This document shows, piece by piece, positions 1 to 6,515 of a DNA stretch of 6,515 bases. Location: positions 1 to 6,515 of the IMG/VR virus record IMGVR_UViG_2541047958_000004; one strand, written 5' to 3'. The notes below the pieces were generated by a model. It saw nothing but the letters and a program-made list of their open reading frames with translations. It made no database searches and was not told the DNA's origin. The translations under genes and the position numbers were made by a program. Numbering within the stretch: the first letter of the stretch is position 1; each line of letters opens with the position of its first letter. Source of the DNA: a virus. Lineage: Duplodnaviria; Heunggongvirae; Uroviricota; Caudoviricetes.

Positions 1-582
1 TTACCCTATAGGTGCTACTGGCCATTCAATATCCGGTGCAGTTGATGTATCAACACGGTTCAGCAACACCCGATACTTTTTCCAGGCTTCCAGCAACGAC
101 GCCTCTTCTTCCGTTGCGATCTCCAGATCTACAGCATCCTGAAGCGGCGCTATATGCTCACTGGCTACCTGCATCAGGCTGTTTTTTGTTTCTTCCGCCT
201 CCCGGATCCGGAACAGTTTTTCTGCTTCCGTATCCTTCACCCAGACTGTACCGTTCCACTTCTGAAACTCCCCTTCCGGGGATAACCAGGTGACATTTTC
301 CGGTAATGAGCCGAGTTCAGAAATAAATAACGCGTCGCCGGAAGCCACGTCATAGACCGTTTTACCACGATGGTCTTCAACGAGATGCCACGATGCCTCA
401 TCACTGTTGAAAACAGCCACGAAGCCTGCCGGAATATCTGGCGGTGCAATATCGGTACTGTTTGCAGGCAGACCTGTATGAGGCGGAATATATGCGTCAC
501 CTTCACCAATAAATTCATTAGTTCCGGCCAGCAGGTTATAAATTTTTATGGTCCGTGCTTGTTCACTCATTCTGAATGCCAT
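1..582 (-). CDS. tfa: Tail fibre assembly protein (lambda Tfa-like chaperone), complete, 193 aa; stop codon at 1..3 (TAA on minus strand)
   Basis: Seen: ATG at 582 (rc of 580..582), GAGG Shine-Dalgarno 8 nt upstream (rc of 591..596), and the ATG overlaps the stf stop as TAATG. The translation (MAFRMSEQ...[31 protein letters not shown]...[22 protein letters not shown]) matches phage lambda Tfa / E. coli TfaE-type proteins almost end to end, as recalled from memory. No search was run. Confidence 0.9.
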
Positions 583-2474
583 TATGCGAGCCTCACAATA
601 TAGTTAAATGCGATGTTTTTGACGGTGTTTTCCGCGTTACCAGCAGCGTTAACGGTGATGGTGTGTCCATGTGAGCCAATCGCAACCGAGTGCGTATGCG
701 CACCAATACCTACAGTATGTGCATGTGCGCCAGAACTTGCTGCAGTACCAGACAGCGAGTGGGTATGAGCACCTGCTGACTGTGTCTGAATACGTTGATA
801 ATACGATCTACTGGAAGAAGTCCCCGGGCTTACTTGATACTGTGAATCCTTGACATAAGTGAACCCACCGCCATCATAAAATGCTAACGCAGAACCGCCG
901 CCTCCTGGCCAACGAATACCATTACCATGAGTATGAGCACCGGCAGACCCCGTAGAGCCACTCAGACTGTGCGTATGCGCCCCGGTGTTATTCGTGGATT
1001 TAGTGCCGTAATCAAACGACGATGTGGTTTTCGTCCCCAAATCCGTACTGGATGCGCTGGCGCTGTGGGTGTGCGATTTAATGCCGTCCTGTTCCTGAGA
1101 CAATACGGCCCGACCACTGGCAGGTTTGCCCTTAATCGTCCAGCCACGCATATCAGGGATCACGCCTGACGGATAAGCCGCTGCAAGTTTCGGGTATGCA
1201 GATTTGTCAAAAGTCTGCCCCTGCATCAGGGCATAGCCAGACGGAACGGTATCCGATGGCCACGGGATTGGTGCGCCGACTGGGTAGCTTTCTGGTGGAA
1301 GATTTTTCGAGGTATAAACTTCTGCCCAGTCTTCCTCAAAACCATAGCCATCTCTTGAGGAACGGTAGAACAGACCTCCATTTCTGTAATGCGCCTTCAT
1401 CTGCAGGGTCCGGCAACTTCCGACTCCGGTATAGAAGTTAACCAGAATATAGCTGTCGCCAGAGCGGGTGACATTGTAAGCGCCTGATTCGGCATTCCAG
1501 GGAACGCCACCATCCGCATCGGCATATGTATCAGTTGCCCTTCTGGCAAAAGCAGCCACATGCGCAGCGGTTAAAGTAATATCTTTGGAACCATCAAACT
1601 CAACACCAGAAACCAGTCTTGGCGTTTGCAGCTTTGTTGCTGTTAATGCATTACCGTTCAGACTTGCGGACAGTTTGGTTCCAATAATCAGTTCGCCGGT
1701 TGCGTTATCAATAGCAAACGGTCTTAATGTATTCCAGCCACCATAAACATCACCTTGATTGGTAAGCAGCAGGTAAGTTTTAGCGCCATCATTACGCCAT
1801 AATGCACCATACTCCCCACCTATCATTCGAATCTGATTACCACCACGCGCTACAATTTCGTCTGTGGCAAAAAGTTTTTTGCACGACAAGTTATCGTTAA
1901 CGATTAACGAATGAGACTCATAAAAACCACGCCCACTCTTAAAATCAAGGATAACGTCCGCCGCGATACATTCAGTCGCCGGATTTGTTGCCCCAAACTT
2001 ATAGGTCGTATCATTAACAACGAGATCAGCACCAGGTGCGGATATTGACAGGCCATCTTCGATAAACGCAAAAACAGGGAAAGCAGCGCCATCAACATAG
2101 AACACAGAGCGCAAATCATCGCCCTTATTACTCATCATTATTGAGTGGATGGCTCGTTCATTGTTTTGATATTGCCAGAACATGCCATAAGCATAACGCC
2201 CCCTGTCAGTCCAGCCACCAGGCATAACAAATCCGTTAAACTCGCAGTTATTCATCGGATCGCCTGCGGTTCGCGTTGCCGTGGTGATAATGACCCTTGA
2301 TGCCAGTTCGCTTACTGAGCCAGCAGAACGCATAACAACAACAGGGTAATATTTTCCAGATGTTGCACCTGCAGGAGCATTAACCCGCACATAACGCATA
2401 CCGCGCTTATCAGCAAAGTCTGTTTTACTGACCGCGTTAATGTTGTTCAGGAAGTGTCCCTTAAGGCAAAACAA
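582..2474 (-). CDS. stf: Side tail fibre protein (Stf-like), mosaic; start uncertain (TTG at 2474 is the longest ORF, first ATG at 2399); possibly a 5'-truncated copy of a longer stf
   Basis: Seen: 630-codon ORF ending in TAA at 582..584. The C-terminal ~235 aa (from ...GAPIPWPSD onward; ...[32 protein letters not shown]...[30 protein letters not shown]) matches the lambda Stf C-terminal region from memory, including repeated GAHTHS/GAHAHT His motifs. There is no Shine-Dalgarno before either candidate start, and the frame stays open 27 codons upstream of the first ATG. Confidence 0.8.
585..1290 (-). other. Lambda-Stf-like C-terminal receptor-binding/tip region of the tail fibre, with repeated HxH (GxHxH) motifs
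   Basis: Seen: at least seven H-x-H motifs in the last ~200 aa (SHTHS, GAHTHS, GAHTHG, GAHTHS, GAHAHT, GAHTHS, SHGHT). Established knowledge: HxH repeats in T4 gp37-type fibre tips coordinate metal ions, and the lambda Stf tip together with Tfa determines receptor use. Boundaries are approximate. Confidence 0.7.
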
Positions 2475-2493
2475 ATTCTATGCGTTCAGTCAT

Positions 2494-3504
2494 TCATGCT
2501 TTCCACTTCAGGACACCCGAATTTCTCGCGTGCATTAAAAAACGAATCAGCAACAACAGCTGGCTGCCGTGTTTTTCTTCAAAATCTTTTACCCCGGCGT
2601 GCAGTTCGTTATGACATTTACGGCACAGCGGAATAACAAACAAATCATCAGCCTTTGTTCCCATCCCTCCCAGTCCATGACCAATGATGTGATGCGGATC
2701 ATCTGCCTGATTACCGCACGTCATGCATTTCTGCGTTTTTACCCAGCGCGTGTATACAGGCATCTCTTCCCGTTGTGGTTTCTGGCGCTGGAGATACTGA
2801 GCCGGTGACTCCGGATCAACAGCAATGCTGACCACCGTCTTTTCCTGTGGCGGGTTTTGCTGGTGGGCGTGAGGCAGCGGCGCAAGATTTTTTGTGCGCT
2901 GCTTCAGTATGCTGGTGGCGGTCTGCTCTCCCGGTACGATGTCGCTTTCACGGTACATTGAGCGGATTTTTTCCGCACGCAACCCCAGCGAACGACGTAA
3001 TACCGCTTCCGGTAGCACGTCCGCCACCTGATTGCGGACCGCCCACCAGGATAATTCAGCCAAAGATAATTCACGCTCCTGCGTACCGCTTATTGCGTGA
3101 CCGATGACGTCAATCATCCATGCTGACAGGTTTTGATGAGCAAGCTGCCCGAGTGATTCGGATGTCTGGTCACGCAACTGGTTGTCGCAGTGCCAGCACA
3201 ACACCATTGCGCCGGTACCATAACGGTGAATGACAGTTTCGCTGTGATGATAATCGCCGTGTGGCCACTGGCAGGATTTAATATGGCGCAACAGCCAGTC
3301 AGACAATGCACCAGCACCACCAGCAGCACGAATCACCCGTGCGTTACTGAAAAACGGCAGCAATGTTTTGTCTTCCACCAGCGGCTGGCGAACGGCAGGA
3401 ACGACCCCTGACGGCAGATTACGCATGCTTTTCGGTTCCGGCTCCACCAATACCCGGGTATTGTGGAATACTGGCATGGATTCACGGCCCGGCTTAACGA
3501 TCAC
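2494..3504 (-). CDS. DUF968-like prophage protein with two Cys/His clusters (HNH-like C-terminal motif); 336 aa from GTG at 3504, alternative ATG start at 3477
   Basis: Seen: long ORF ending in TGA at 2494..2496. C-terminal motif CMTCGNQADDPHHIIGHG...LCRKCHNELH (CxxC...HH...CxxCH) and N-terminal cluster CQWPHGDYHH...CWHCDNQ. From memory it resembles E. coli prophage DUF968 proteins (YdfU-type); not verified. Neither candidate start has a clear Shine-Dalgarno. Confidence 0.7.
   Translation of the reverse strand: MIVKPGRESMPVFHNTRVLVEPEPKSMRNLPSGVVPAVRQPLVEDKTLLPFFSNARVIRAAGGAGALSDWLLRHIKSCQWPHGDYHHSETVIHRYGTGAMVLCWHCDNQLRDQTSESLGQLAHQNLSAWMIDVIGHAISGTQERELSLAELSWWAVRNQVADVLPEAVLRRSLGLRAEKIRSMYRESDIVPGEQTATSILKQRTKNLAPLPHAHQQNPPQEKTVVSIAVDPESPAQYLQRQKPQREEMPVYTRWVKTQKCMTCGNQADDPHHIIGHGLGGMGTKADDLFVIPLCRKCHNELHAGVKDFEEKHGSQLLLLIRFLMHARNSGVLKWKA
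2599..2727 (-). other. HNH-like / zinc-finger-like motif region within the DUF968-like protein (aa ~260-302)
   Basis: Seen: CxxC (C260, C263), HH (271-272), CxxC-H (C294, C297, H298), H302. The spacing is reminiscent of HNH/His-Me finger nucleases; calling it that is inference. Confidence 0.45.
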
Positions 3505-3603
3505 CAGCCCGAGTTCCGGTATCCGGCGTTAATTGTTAACTGGTTAACGTCACCTGGAGGCACCAGGCACCGCATCACAAAACTCATTGTTGAGGGCGCG
3601 ATA
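3505..3603. promoter_or_regulatory. Divergent intergenic region between the DUF968 start and the first plus-strand small ORF; candidate promoter/operator region
   Basis: Seen: tandem palindromic hexamers GTTAAC-TG-GTTAAC (3535..3548) and an adjacent CACC-rich segment with short inverted repeat CCTGG-aggca-CCAGG (3553..3567). No sigma70 -35/-10 pair of good quality could be assigned by eye on either strand. Confidence 0.3.
3592..3596 (+). promoter_or_regulatory. Shine-Dalgarno (GAGGG) for the 62-aa small ORF
   Basis: GAGGG lies 7 nt upstream of ATG 3604. Confidence 0.5.
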
Positions 3604-3792
3604 ATGAAAACGTTATTACCAAACGTTAATACGTCTGAAGGTTGTTTTGAAATTGGTGTCACTATCAGTAATCCTGTATTTACTGAAGATGCCATTAACA
3701 AAAGAAAACACGAACGGGAGTTATTAAATAAAGTATGCATTGTTTCAATGCTGGCCCGTTTACGTCTGATGCCAAAAGGATGTGCACAATGA
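3604..3792 (+). CDS. Small hypothetical protein, 62 aa (MKTLLPNVNTSEGCFEIGV...), first gene of the recE-proximal operon
   Basis: Seen: ATG at 3604 with GAGGG Shine-Dalgarno; stop TGA 3790..3792 overlaps the next ORF's ATG (ATGA). The longer 109-aa form starting at 3463 would overlap the divergent DUF968 start and lacks an RBS, so the internal ATG is preferred. Its position corresponds to the small genes upstream of recE in Rac-type early-left operons (inference). Confidence 0.5.
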   Translation: MKTLLPNVNTSEGCFEIGVTISNPVFTEDAINKRKHERELLNKVCIVSMLARLRLMPKGCAQ

Positions 3793-3980
3793 ATCCAGTA
3801 TTTGCACTTATTCTGACGGTTTTTCTTGTTTCCGGAGAGCCAGTTGATATTGCAGTCAGTGTTCACAGAACAAAGCAGGAATGTATGGCAGCAGCAACCG
3901 AACAGAAAATTCCAGGCAACTGTTATCCGGTCGATAAAGTTATTCACCAGGATAATAACGAAATCCCGGCAGGATTTTAA
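3789..3980 (+). CDS. Small hypothetical protein, 63 aa, with a hydrophobic N-terminus (MNPVFALILTVFLVSG...) and two Cys; possible membrane or secreted small protein
   Basis: Seen: ATG at 3789 overlapping the upstream stop (ATGA), AAGGA Shine-Dalgarno at 3776..3780 with 8-nt spacing, and ~16 hydrophobic residues at the N-terminus. The ORF-track start at 3735 has no RBS. Confidence 0.55.
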   Translation: MNPVFALILTVFLVSGEPVDIAVSVHRTKQECMAAATEQKIPGNCYPVDKVIHQDNNEIPAGF

Positions 3981-4059
3981 AACAGCACCGTAATAAATAT
4001 CCAGTTTCATTCTTATATGTCAGCAATGGCAGAGATTTGTTCACCCTTAAATCTGTGAT

Positions 4060-4064
4060 GAGGT
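4060..4064 (+). promoter_or_regulatory. Shine-Dalgarno (GAGGT) for the RecE-like gene
   Basis: GAGGT lies 9 nt upstream of ATG 4074. Confidence 0.5.
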
Positions 4065-4073
4065 TTACCAATA

Positions 4074-6515
4074 ATGAGCACTGATAAAGAAGAATTTGCA
4101 CTATATTGCGAAGCAAAAAATGACAAAGTAAGAAAACGCCTGGGAATTAAAGGTGGTTTTTACTGGACTACAGCAAAAAAATTATCTGTTGCAATCTCCC
4201 GCTGCATTACCGCAATGGATGACAACGATTATGATGAAGACGACTTTAAAAAACCCGTCCGCGTCAATTTGCCCGTTGTTGACGACCTTCCGCCAGAAGG
4301 CGTGTTTGATACTGAATTCTGCAACCGCTATGAAAAAGGCGGGAAAGATGGCATCACAATGACATTTATCGGCCCTTCCCCCTCTGTTCAGGACAAACCA
4401 GCCAGCACTGACAATACCAACATCAACGGCGAAGACATGACTGAGATTGAGGAGAGCATGCTTCTGCCTGTCTCCGGTCAGGAACTGCCCATTCGTTGGC
4501 TTGCTCAACACGGCAGCGAAAAACCAGTAACGCACGTTTCACGCGACGAACTCCAGGCATTACACATTGCACGGGCTGAAGAACTACCGGCTGTTACTGC
4601 CCTGGCTATTTCGCATAAAACCAGTCTGCTCGACTCGCTGGAGATTCGCGACCTCCACAAACTGGTTCGTGACACTGACAAAGTTTTCCCTAATCCTGGT
4701 AATTCAGACCTGGGACTAATAACTGCTTTTTTCGAAGCATACCTGGACGCTGACTACACTGATCGGGGTCTGCTGACAAAAGAGTGGATGAAAGGAAATC
4801 GTGTTTCACGCATCACCCGCACGGCTTCCGGTGCTAATGCTGGCGGTGGGAACAAAACCGATCGCAATCCGAATTTAGTACACACCCTCGACACACTGGA
4901 TGTGGAGATTGCAGCAGCCACACTTCCGATGGATTTTAATATTTATGAAATTCCGGGCAGCGTTTATCGTCGCGCAAAAGAAGTAGTCCTGAACAAAGAA
5001 AGTCCGTTCAAAGAATGGTCCGCAGCACTTCGTGCAACCCCGGGTATTCTGGACTATTCCCGCGCCGCTATTTTTGCACTTATCCGAAGCGCACACCCTG
5101 AATTTTATCACTACCCGGGACGCCTTCAGGGGTATATCAACGCCTATTTGACGGAAACTGATCACGAGAACCCCAGCAAGGAAACTCTCACAGCTGCCCG
5201 GCATACGCCGGAAAAAGATATCCTGGAAGAAATTAACCGCGAGGTGGTTACTGAGCGTGAAACAGAAGAAGAAAAACCACAACCATCTGACGCAATGGCA
5301 GGTGAACAGGCAACAACTGAAACAATGGAACCGGATACAACTGAACATGGCCAGAACGCGCAGTCGCTGGATGCTCAGTCGCAGGTGAGTTCCGCTAACC
5401 AAGTAAAAGTCACCGCTGACGAAGTAAACAAAATTATGCAGGCAGCCAATATCAGCCAGCCTGACGCCGATAAGTTACTTGCTGTATCGCGTGGTGAATT
5501 TGTTGAGGGGATTAGCGACCCTAATGATCCGAAATGGGTCAAGGGGATCCAGACTCGCGATTCTGTGAACCAGAACCAGCATGAATCGGAACGGAACGAC
5601 CAAAAAGCGGAACAAAACAGCCCAAATGCGTTACAAAACGAGCCAGAAACGAAACAATCCGAACCAGTAGCGCAACAGGAACCGGAAAAAGTCTGCACCG
5701 CCTGCGGTCAGAGCGGTGGCGGCAACTGCCCTGATTGTGGCGCGGTGATGGGCGACGCAACATACCAGGAAACATTCGATGAAGAGAATCAGGTTGAAGT
5801 TCAGGAAAATGATCCGGAGGAAATGGAAGGCGCTGAACATCCACACAAGGAGAACCCTGGCGGCAATCAGCATCACGCCAGCGATAATAAAACTGGCGAG
5901 ACGGCAGATCACTCAATTAAGGTGAACGGTCATCACGAAATCACATCCACCAGCAGGACGTGTGACCATCTAATGATCGACCTTGAAACCATGGGAAAAA
6001 ATCCTGATGCCCCGATCATCTCAATAGGTGCAATATTTTTCGATCCGCAAACCGGAGATATGGGACCGGAATTTAGTAAGACTATCGATCTGGAAACTGC
6101 TGGCGGAGTCATTGATCGGGACACCATTAAATGGTGGCTTAAGCAATCACGCGAAGCGCAATCTGCCATTATGACCGATGAAATCCCGTTAGATGATGCA
6201 CTGTTACAATTGCGGGAATTTATCGACGAAAACTCCGGTGAATTTTTTGTTCAGGTCTGGGGAAATGGAGCCAACTTCGACAACACGATTTTGCGCCGTT
6301 CATACGAACGGCAGGGGATCCCCTGCCCGTGGCGTTACTACAACGATCGCGATGTACGCACAATCGTTGAGCTGGGGAAAGCCATAGACTTCGATGCCAG
6401 AACGGCTATTCCATTCGAAGGTGAGCGCCATAATGCACTTGATGACGCTCGTTACCAGGCAAAATACGTTTCAGCTATCTGGCAAAAACTGATCCCGAGT
6501 CAGGCTGATTTTTAA
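4074..6515 (+). CDS. recE: RecE-family (exodeoxyribonuclease VIII-like) protein, 813 aa, with the canonical C-terminal nuclease replaced by a DEDDh 3'-5' exonuclease domain; stop TAA at 6513..6515
   Basis: Seen: 2.4-kb ORF with an RBS. The N-terminal ~620 aa contain long stretches I recognise from E. coli Rac RecE (e.g. [134 protein letters not shown]; [46 protein letters not shown]). The last ~185 aa instead carry DEDDh motifs. The symbol is given for the N-terminal family only. Confidence 0.85.
5694..5738 (+). other. Putative zinc ribbon (CxxC-x7-CxxC) within the RecE-like protein
   Basis: Seen: [17 protein letters not shown]. From memory the same motif is present in E. coli RecE. Confidence 0.5.
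5961..6512 (+). other. DEDDh (DnaQ-like) 3'-5' exonuclease domain at the C-terminus of the RecE-like protein
   Basis: Seen: motif I MIDLET (D636, E638), motif [11 protein letters not shown], motif III H-x4-D (HNALDD) with a following Tyr. This pattern defines DEDDh exonucleases (RNase T, Exo I, DnaQ epsilon, oligoribonuclease). The domain begins at an internal Met (ATG 5973). Confidence 0.7.

Follow-up and report, generated by a model that had tools for sequence, protein, structure and literature searches.

The DNA analysed here, referred to as the window, is a stretch of 6,515 nucleotides (positions 1 to 6,515 of the IMG/VR virus record IMGVR_UViG_2541047958_000004, class Caudoviricetes), in which two small overlapping ORFs lie just 5' of a recE-like gene. 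The question raised by this locus is what the two ORFs encode and in what kind of element they reside. A previous reading made without database searches (hereafter the sequence-only reading) could not match them confidently to any named family. Such families do exist: the product of ORF1 is matched by models of DicB and that of ORF2 by models of YdfD/DUF1482. The best explanation of the locus, which we consider highly probable, is the known dicB-ydfD pair of Qin-type lambdoid prophages, lying in a decayed remnant that has no recognisable promoter and is likely silent or very weakly expressed. The identity of the pair follows from the family models, the near-identity to the proteins of Escherichia coli K-12, the same gene layout and the signature of purifying selection.

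Organization of the two ORFs

For comparison, a set of 84 related loci was used, 80 of them from IMG/VR and the other four annotated. The features of the pair and of its 3' flank are as follows:

3592..3595, + strand: Shine-Dalgarno (SD) motif GAGG of dicB, 8 nt 5' of the ORF1 ATG
3604..3792, + strand: ORF1, dicB, 62 aa plus stop (family models, near-identity to K-12, pN/pS 0.33)
3777..3780, + strand: SD motif AGGA of ydfD, 8 nt 5' of the ORF2 ATG
3789..3792, + strand: ATGA, overlap of the dicB stop and the ydfD start (read off the sequence; present in 84 of 84 loci and in K-12)
3789..3980, + strand: ORF2, an allele of ydfD (DUF1482), 63 aa plus stop, lysis protein (family models, similarity to K-12, pN/pS 0.26)
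3981..4073, + strand: spacer of 93 bp between ydfD and the exonuclease gene (terminator scan, RNA folding)
4074..6515, + strand: exonuclease gene (813 aa), intact here and represented in K-12 by the pseudogene ydfE (Pfam, same position as ydfE)

The 62-aa and 63-aa ORFs, an SD motif in front of each and the ATGA overlap are all present in the sequence, as the earlier reading had it. The exonuclease gene, starting with the ATG at 4074, has an SD motif of its own (GAGG, 10 nt 5' of the ATG). The 93-bp gap before this gene was described as free of terminators, which is borne out both by a scan, where no terminator-like site was found on the + strand of the spacer, and by RNA folding, where the spacer shows no more structure than its shuffled controls (z = -0.29). 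Longer versions of the ORFs with GTG or ATG extensions (109 aa and 81 aa) were also listed; the 109-aa version crosses the deletion joint described below and is an artefact.

ORF1 encodes DicB

The product of ORF1 matches the Pfam DicB family (PF05358) over its entire length, with residues 1-62 aligned to profile positions 1-62 (E = 5e-40, 135.4 bits against a cutoff of 27), and reaches 134.3 bits with the NCBIfam model NF049927 ("cell division inhibition protein DicB"), the cutoff of which is 100. It shares 60 of 62 amino acids with K-12 DicB, and 182 of 189 nucleotides of the gene are identical. The allele of the window differs from the K-12 protein by Q36H and I44V and is the commonest one among the 84 related loci. 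In the K-12 Qin prophage, dicB has the same length (62 aa), overlaps the following gene by the same 4 bp and is succeeded by genes in the same order, and the 85-nt leader is identical at 82 of 85 positions. In the Qin region, dicB, ydfD (annotated as "lysis protein") and ydfE follow each other in the same arrangement, with a spacer of ~92 bp before ydfE.

The pair is by no means rare. Positions 3519..4300 of the window are 100% identical to regions annotated as dicB/DUF1482/exonuclease in many complete E. coli genomes, and 4,740 of the 5,426 complete E. coli genomes searched contain some match to positions 3300-4300, in which the pair is located. In phage records the same genes are annotated as "cell division inhibition protein" and "putative YdfD family protein". 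The dicB-ydfD pair is already known, with its characterisation carried out in E. coli K-12, and the result reported here is mainly one of annotation: two unassigned small ORFs become dicB and ydfD, genes carried by most E. coli genomes. A sequence search of the PDB revealed no solved relative of either DicB or YdfD, and no defence-system model of PADLOC matched the two proteins or their neighbours.

In K-12, DicB is a division inhibitor that acts through MinC, ZipA and FtsZ and also excludes ManYZ-dependent phages (PMC6832061, PMC10448788). It binds MinC and brings it to midcell via ZipA, where the FtsZ ring is depolymerised and the cells become filamentous; the MinC-dependent activity of DicB also inhibits the mannose-PTS membrane proteins ManYZ, and this block reduces the entry of DNA of lambda-like phages (PMC6832061). 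By analogy with the K-12 orthologue, the DicB of the window may be expected to have the same activities. The sequence-only reading had proposed small host-interfering prophage genes of the leftward early region, 5' of an exonuclease gene, which agrees with what was found, and had regarded them as candidates for inhibition of cell division or exclusion of other phages. As far as ORF1 is concerned, these guesses seem to be well placed in the light of the DicB literature (PMC6832061, PMC10448788); for ORF2, the activity described in K-12 is division-dependent lysis (PMC8835842).

ORF2 encodes an allele of YdfD

The product of ORF2 matches the Pfam family DUF1482 (PF07358; E = 7e-25, 87.1 bits against a cutoff of 25, residues 4-61 aligned to profile positions 1-57) as well as, over its full length, phrog_1092 (E = 1e-36). 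It has the same length as K-12 YdfD, annotated as "lysis protein", shares 55 of 63 residues (87%) with it and is thus close to this characterised member of a family that also includes more distant proteins of the YebW type. Common to both proteins are the N-terminal hydrophobic stretch, the G-E-P turn, both conserved cysteines and the QKIPGNCYPVDKVI motif, and the start codon overlapping the dicB stop is likewise the same. The substitutions relative to K-12 YdfD are S3P, A4V, V6A, V8I, M29K, T34A, I57N and L63F.

The last of these deserves attention. In K-12, truncation of YdfD by a single residue at either end, or the replacement L63A, abolishes killing (PMC8835842). The product of ORF2 is full length and retains N2, and its final residue is F63 instead of the L63 of K-12; F63 is at the same time the commonest ending of YdfD among the 84 related loci. 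A common natural allele of YdfD hence has phenylalanine at its end, where the residue of the K-12 protein has been reported as critical.

Expression of K-12 YdfD lyses the cells, for which ongoing division is required, and the lysis is prevented when DicB or SulA is co-expressed (PMC8835842). According to a single study, YdfD binds and would inhibit IspG, an enzyme of the MEP pathway, and the cells are rescued by overexpression of ispG or by the product of IspG (PMC8835842). By analogy with K-12, the F63 allele of the window may act likewise.

The hydrophobic N-terminus and the two cysteines pointed out in the sequence-only reading are both present, the hydrophobic run being slightly shorter (14 residues) than the ~16 given there. 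The uncharged run extends from P3 to G16, and its 11-residue core has a mean Kyte-Doolittle value of 3.2. In 30 relatives of ORF2 the hydrophobic stretch gives way to G16, which is invariant, and to an E-P that is nearly so; of the two cysteines, described as conserved in PMC8835842 as well, C32 is invariant and C45 is kept in at least 90% of these relatives. Such a strongly hydrophobic run, together with a lysis phenotype (PMC8835842) and two conserved cysteines that could form a disulfide in the periplasm, might suggest that YdfD is exported or anchored in the membrane by a signal peptide or transmembrane helix and acts on the envelope in the manner of a holin or a superinfection-exclusion protein. 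This seems rather unlikely to us. The hydrophobic core comprises 11-14 residues with no basic residue before it, which is atypical for either a Sec signal peptide or a membrane-spanning helix. Furthermore, in the best AlphaFold model residues 4-12 form a β-strand paired with residues 18-26; the hairpin packs against a helix (residues 29-38) in a fold of the β-β-α-β type, bearing in mind that one model of five was confident (pLDDT 79, the other four 52-58). For the K-12 protein, pull-down, SEC, ITC and FRET place YdfD on the cytoplasmic enzyme IspG, and the two conserved cysteines are dispensable for this binding, as mutants in them still bind (PMC8835842). A small soluble fold is accordingly weakly favoured for the ORF2 product over a signal peptide or transmembrane helix, as far as a predicted model may indicate. 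Searched with Foldseek, this model matched no known fold significantly (best E = 1.1), and the fold provides no lead to the mechanism.

Conservation and coding capacity

Frame conservation and the pattern of synonymous changes in homologous regions had been named in the sequence-only reading as a check on whether the ORFs are coding at all. The outcome speaks for coding: in all of the 84 loci DicB (62 aa), YdfD (62 or 63 aa) and the ATGA overlap are intact, and pN/pS equals 0.33 for dicB and 0.26 for ydfD (22 and 21 distinct nucleotide haplotypes, respectively). Control frames gave values of 0.76-2.5, those of the other forward frames being 0.76-1.13; the exception among the controls is the antisense frame that shares wobble positions with the genes (0.29 for dicB and 0.39 for ydfD). 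Judged by this pattern, both ORFs are real genes under purifying selection and not chance ORFs.

The longest ORF across the interval is found on the opposite strand (169 aa, 3501..4010), and its pN/pS is also low over the dicB portion (0.29), so that it might be taken for the true gene, with the small + strand ORFs being incidental. We attach next to no probability to this reading. The value of 0.29 is an artefact to be expected, since the wobble positions of the antisense frame coincide there with those of dicB, whereas over ydfD the pN/pS of the same ORF rises to 0.84 and stops occur in some haplotypes. In addition, the antisense ORF crosses the deletion joint at 3519, and it is the + strand ORFs that match curated families. 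With constraint confined to the part in which wobble positions coincide with those of dicB, the 169-aa ORF was rejected as a gene.

The downstream exonuclease gene

The gene following the pair was called recE-like, which holds true for one part of its product only. In the 813-aa protein, Pfam Exonuc_VIII was detected at residues 57-189 and an Rv2179c-like 3'-5' exoribonuclease domain (PF16473) at residues 632-803. The RecE model NF007259 yields 942.7 bits, below its cutoff of 1269, and covers model positions 1-602 of 877 only. Similarly, the BLASTP alignment with K-12 RecE (59% identity) is confined to RecE residues 50-591. The N-terminal ~590 residues of RecE are thus represented, whereas the RecE nuclease is replaced, at the catalytic end, by a DEDDh 3'-5' exonuclease domain. 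This arrangement is the usual one at such loci: a gene of the DEDDh type comes after the pair in 77 of the 84 loci, while a C-terminus of the RecE type occurs in a single one, which is also the one that has recT. For a hybrid of a RecE N-terminus and a DEDDh domain, annotation as exonuclease VIII is inappropriate.

Deletion joints and the probable prophage remnant

The region upstream of the pair is made up of the following features:

1..582, - strand: tail fibre assembly gene (Pfam Caudo_TAP, Gp34_trimer, Collar and gp37_C, for the two tail-fibre genes jointly)
582..2474, - strand: side tail fibre gene (stf), 5'-truncated (tail-fibre Pfam domains; phage homology)
2462..2463, no strand: left deletion joint with TA microhomology (stf homology ends at 2463, the DUF968 block starts at 2462)
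2494..3504, - strand: DUF968/HNH-like gene, 5'-truncated (Pfam DUF968, E = 6e-64)
3519..3521, no strand: right deletion joint with 3-nt microhomology GTA (three-way comparison of the window with loci L005 and L001)
3519..3603, + strand: retained leader of dicB, 85 nt including the SD motif GAGG (homology to the 84 dicB loci and K-12)

Position 3519, 85 nt 5' of the dicB ATG, is where homology of the window to all dicB loci sets in abruptly, and the DUF968 block ends at 3521; the GTA at the crossover is common to the DUF968 context (L005) and to the dicB-leader context of the canonical locus (L001). Positions 2462..3521 match, at 99.9% identity and in opposite orientation, a stretch with DUF968 and rusA from a different lambdoid prophage region. 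Of the DUF968 gene, which canonically encodes 351 aa, the first 28 nt and the native start have been lost; of rusA, just the first 32 nt are left, fused through TA at 2462-2463 to the truncated side tail fibre gene. The tail-fibre genes themselves show 97% identity to those of phages ev099 and mEp332.

The order and orientations of the genes in the window correspond to the lambdoid map minus two internal deletions. One of these would have removed the late region, i.e. Q together with the lysis, head and tail genes, and the other the replication and immunity genes along with ydfABC and dicF. At the right joint, a microhomology-mediated deletion would have fused what is left of the dicB leader, its last 85 nt, with the truncated, divergent DUF968 gene. 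In comparison with the dicBF operon of K-12, the copy in the window is deleted for dicBp, ydfA, ydfB, ydfC and dicF as well as for the immunity genes dicA and dicC: ydfA/B/C, dicBp and dicA/dicC are absent from the window, and an Rfam search found no DicF in it, while DicF of the canonical locus (L001) was recovered at 76.7 bits. The dicB gene of the window consequently does not stand 3' of dicF behind a DicA-repressed, PL-like promoter. Synteny is limited to the final 85 nt of the leader and the genes 3' of it. This missing context is due to a deletion in the present copy and is not the mark of a different family, and the window as a whole is most probably a decayed prophage remnant.

The possibility that position -85 represents a recurrent module boundary was also considered and dismissed: a break at this position is found in none of the 84 loci, the apparent ones being small indels. 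As a separate observation, the retained leader gives a sub-threshold STnc100-like match in Rfam; in the canonical locus this match reaches further 5', in the direction of DicF.

Neither of the two joints (2462/2463 and 3519-3521) was found in the public collections searched. The joint at 3519 is absent from the 5,426 complete E. coli genomes, GenBank phages and PLSDB plasmids, from the GTDB species representatives (38-nt and 24-nt junction patterns) and from IMG/VR and the JGI metagenomes; exact-protein searches with the truncated DUF968 protein or the truncated tail fibre (two starts each) had no matches. The remnant would be either rare or else an artefact of assembly (a chimera). The deletion of the regulatory half is the only aspect of the locus that is not routine, and prophage decay of the ordinary kind explains it best. 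It offers an example of decay by microhomology deletion that leaves two toxic genes intact while depriving them of their repressor, promoter and companion sRNA.

Transcription of the pair in full prophages and in the remnant

In full prophages the gene order is cI/DicA-like repressor, DUF1391 (ydfA), ydfB, ydfC, DicF, dicB, DUF1482, exonuclease, xis and int. Among 83 informative loci, 81 have DicF ~174 nt 5' of dicB. The K-12 transcript starts at dicBp, a PL-like promoter located upstream of ydfA and repressed by DicA (PMC10448788). Hence, the notion that the pair leads the operon does not hold: it normally lies in mid-operon, after dicBp-ydfABC-dicF, and looks first in the window because the deletion at 3519 removed everything upstream. 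Likewise, co-transcription with the exonuclease gene, as supposed in the sequence-only reading, is not established; in K-12, a species of 1,608 nt covering ydfABC-dicFB-ydfD was seen, and none extending into ydfE (PMC10448788). Translational coupling of dicB and ydfD through ATGA is, on the other hand, plausible because the overlap is kept in all 84 loci and in K-12. The conserved overlap would tie the synthesis of YdfD to that of DicB, so that the lysis protein would be made together with the factor that masks its lysis.

In the remnant, a crude consensus scan detected no sigma-70-like site on the + strand between position 877 and dicB, and the total count of such sites in the whole window is at chance level. 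The dicB-ydfD pair appears to be intact yet without a recognisable promoter, and is most likely silent or very weakly expressed.

One may argue that a promoter in the 85-nt leader, or a new one created at the joint, drives the pair at a constitutive low level free of repression, making it a domesticated phage-exclusion module. In favour of this, the ORFs and SD motifs of the pair carry no damage, and prophages that look functional contain copies 100% identical to them. Two sources point to the region between dicF and dicB: Genomic-SELEX placed an RNA-polymerase binding site in this spacer (PMC3946193), and RegulonDB, according to PMC11430063, lists a promoter upstream of dicB. Each of the two may lie inside or outside the retained 85 nt. 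Neither primer extension nor Northern blots revealed an internal promoter in K-12 (PMC10448788), and the + strand upstream of dicB has no sigma-70-like match in the window. Moreover, the identity of 100% to other copies means that the deletion could be recent, and the intactness of the pair is therefore uninformative about selection; a joint that occurs in no other genome searched gives no sign of fixation in a lineage. Expression of this kind is improbable in our view. Less probable still, and quite doubtful, is the more specific scenario in which the deletion joint has made an orphan dicB-ydfD cassette, devoid of DicA operators, dicBp and DicF, for which a weak promoter, if one survives in the leader, would supply DicB and YdfD constitutively and free of the repressor. 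If true, such a cassette would mark a stage at which a prophage toxin pair is being domesticated to serve permanently in phage exclusion. A silent or very weakly expressed pair in a decayed remnant is the reading we retain.

Comparison with the small early genes of Rac and lambda

The sequence-only reading had drawn a parallel with racC, ydaE and kilR of Rac. With regard to position and, for DicB and KilR, to function the parallel is sound; it does not extend to sequence, where no similarity to KilR or YdaE was detected. That the two ORFs are nonetheless relatives of kilR, ydaE, racC, kil or gam and act by the mechanisms of those genes, e.g. by direct binding of FtsZ, has in its favour the same relative position, just 5' of a RecE-related gene in the leftward early region, and the fact that DicB and KilR (annotated in K-12 as "inhibitor of FtsZ") both end in inhibition of the FtsZ ring (PMC10448788). 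BLASTP nevertheless gave no alignment of ORF1 with KilR at E <= 100 and just a 6-residue chance match of ORF2 with YdaE, both ORFs match other families with very strong E-values, and DicB works through MinC and not by binding FtsZ directly (PMC6832061). At the level of sequence, kinship with KilR and YdaE is effectively refuted by these BLASTP results, and we consider this alternative extremely unlikely as a whole; the pair is best regarded as dicB-ydfD.

The exonuclease gene likewise resembles its Rac counterpart in part. As in Rac recE, the non-catalytic N-terminal region is encoded (59% identity over about 560 residues), and the gene occupies the same position relative to xis and int in full prophages. 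Unlike in Rac RecE, the C-terminal nuclease domain is replaced by the DEDDh, Rv2179c-like 3'-5' exonuclease domain, and recT is absent after the gene in related loci except for one of the 84.

In Rac, the genes kilR-ydaE-racC are located 5' of recE, and in lambda, kil is located 5' of gam/bet/exo, so that host-interfering genes stand in both cases in the position taken by the pair described here. YdfD has no counterpart among kilR-ydaE-racC or kil. KilR, Kil and DicB, in contrast, all block the FtsZ ring (K-12 annotation; PMC10448788), DicB doing so by way of MinC and ZipA and not directly.

Mosaic structure and deletion joints

Three blocks make up the window: one holds the tail-fibre genes, one a DUF968 gene and a 32-nt piece of rusA, and one dicB, ydfD and the exonuclease gene. 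The features concerned are as follows:

2462-2463, left joint, with a 2-nt microhomology (TA)
2494-3504, minus strand, DUF968/HNH-like gene, shortened by 28 nt at its 5' end (about 9 codons), with loss of the native start, at the deletion joint
3519-3521, right joint, with a 3-nt microhomology (GTA)
3975-3977, plus strand, last ydfD codon (F63)
4074-6515, plus strand, "recE-like" hybrid gene, whose product is RecE-like over the N-terminal ~590 aa and carries a DEDDh Rv2179c-like 3'-5' exonuclease domain at the C-terminus

The order of the blocks is consistent with two illegitimate deletions in a lambdoid prophage, one of which took out the late region and the other the immunity/replication region; a search of public sequence collections for both joints returned no copy of either. 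Since only an internal GTG at 3504 or an ATG at 3477 is left as a possible translation start, the truncated DUF968/HNH-like gene is probably a pseudogene.

In the tail-fibre block, a full-length match to Rfam IS009 was observed at 41-239 on the minus strand (222 bits, gathering score 117), wholly within the tail fibre assembly gene. IS009 may be a family derived from coding sequence, rather than an independent RNA gene.

Open frame and leader upstream of dicB

[quoted passage not shown] The window's 109-aa GTG-initiated ORF arose as a side effect of the deletion. Just 5' of the dicB Shine-Dalgarno, the retained leader contains the short inverted repeats GTTAAC..GTTAAC and CCTGG..CCAGG. Rfam STnc100 scored 38.8 bits against the DicF-dicB spacer of the canonical locus L001 (5923-6063, plus strand) and 20.8 bits against the retained part of the leader (window 3518-3567, plus strand), both below the gathering score of 47.

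YdfD and the downstream exonuclease

The final residue of YdfD is F63 in the window allele, whereas it is L63 in K-12, and the K-12 mutant L63A was reported to have lost killing activity (PMC8835842). Given that F63 is the commonest ending among the 84 related loci (80 from IMG/VR and four annotated), natural YdfD alleles may vary in lytic strength.

Four overlapping sigma-70-like hexamer pairs are clustered at 3952-4023 on the minus strand, located at the ydfD 3' end and within the spacer that follows ydfD, in antisense direction to ydfD/dicB. Because the region is AT-rich, this cluster may be due to chance (4 matches observed versus 1.6 expected in the 900-nt region).

In the related loci, recT is absent downstream of the hybrid exonuclease gene, for which the label "exodeoxyribonuclease VIII" in phage records (annotation varies) looks like a misnomer. 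Compared with RecE, the hybrid product has the DEDDh Rv2179c-like domain in place of the RecE nuclease, and whereas the K-12 pseudogene ydfE is its disrupted counterpart, the window copy is intact.
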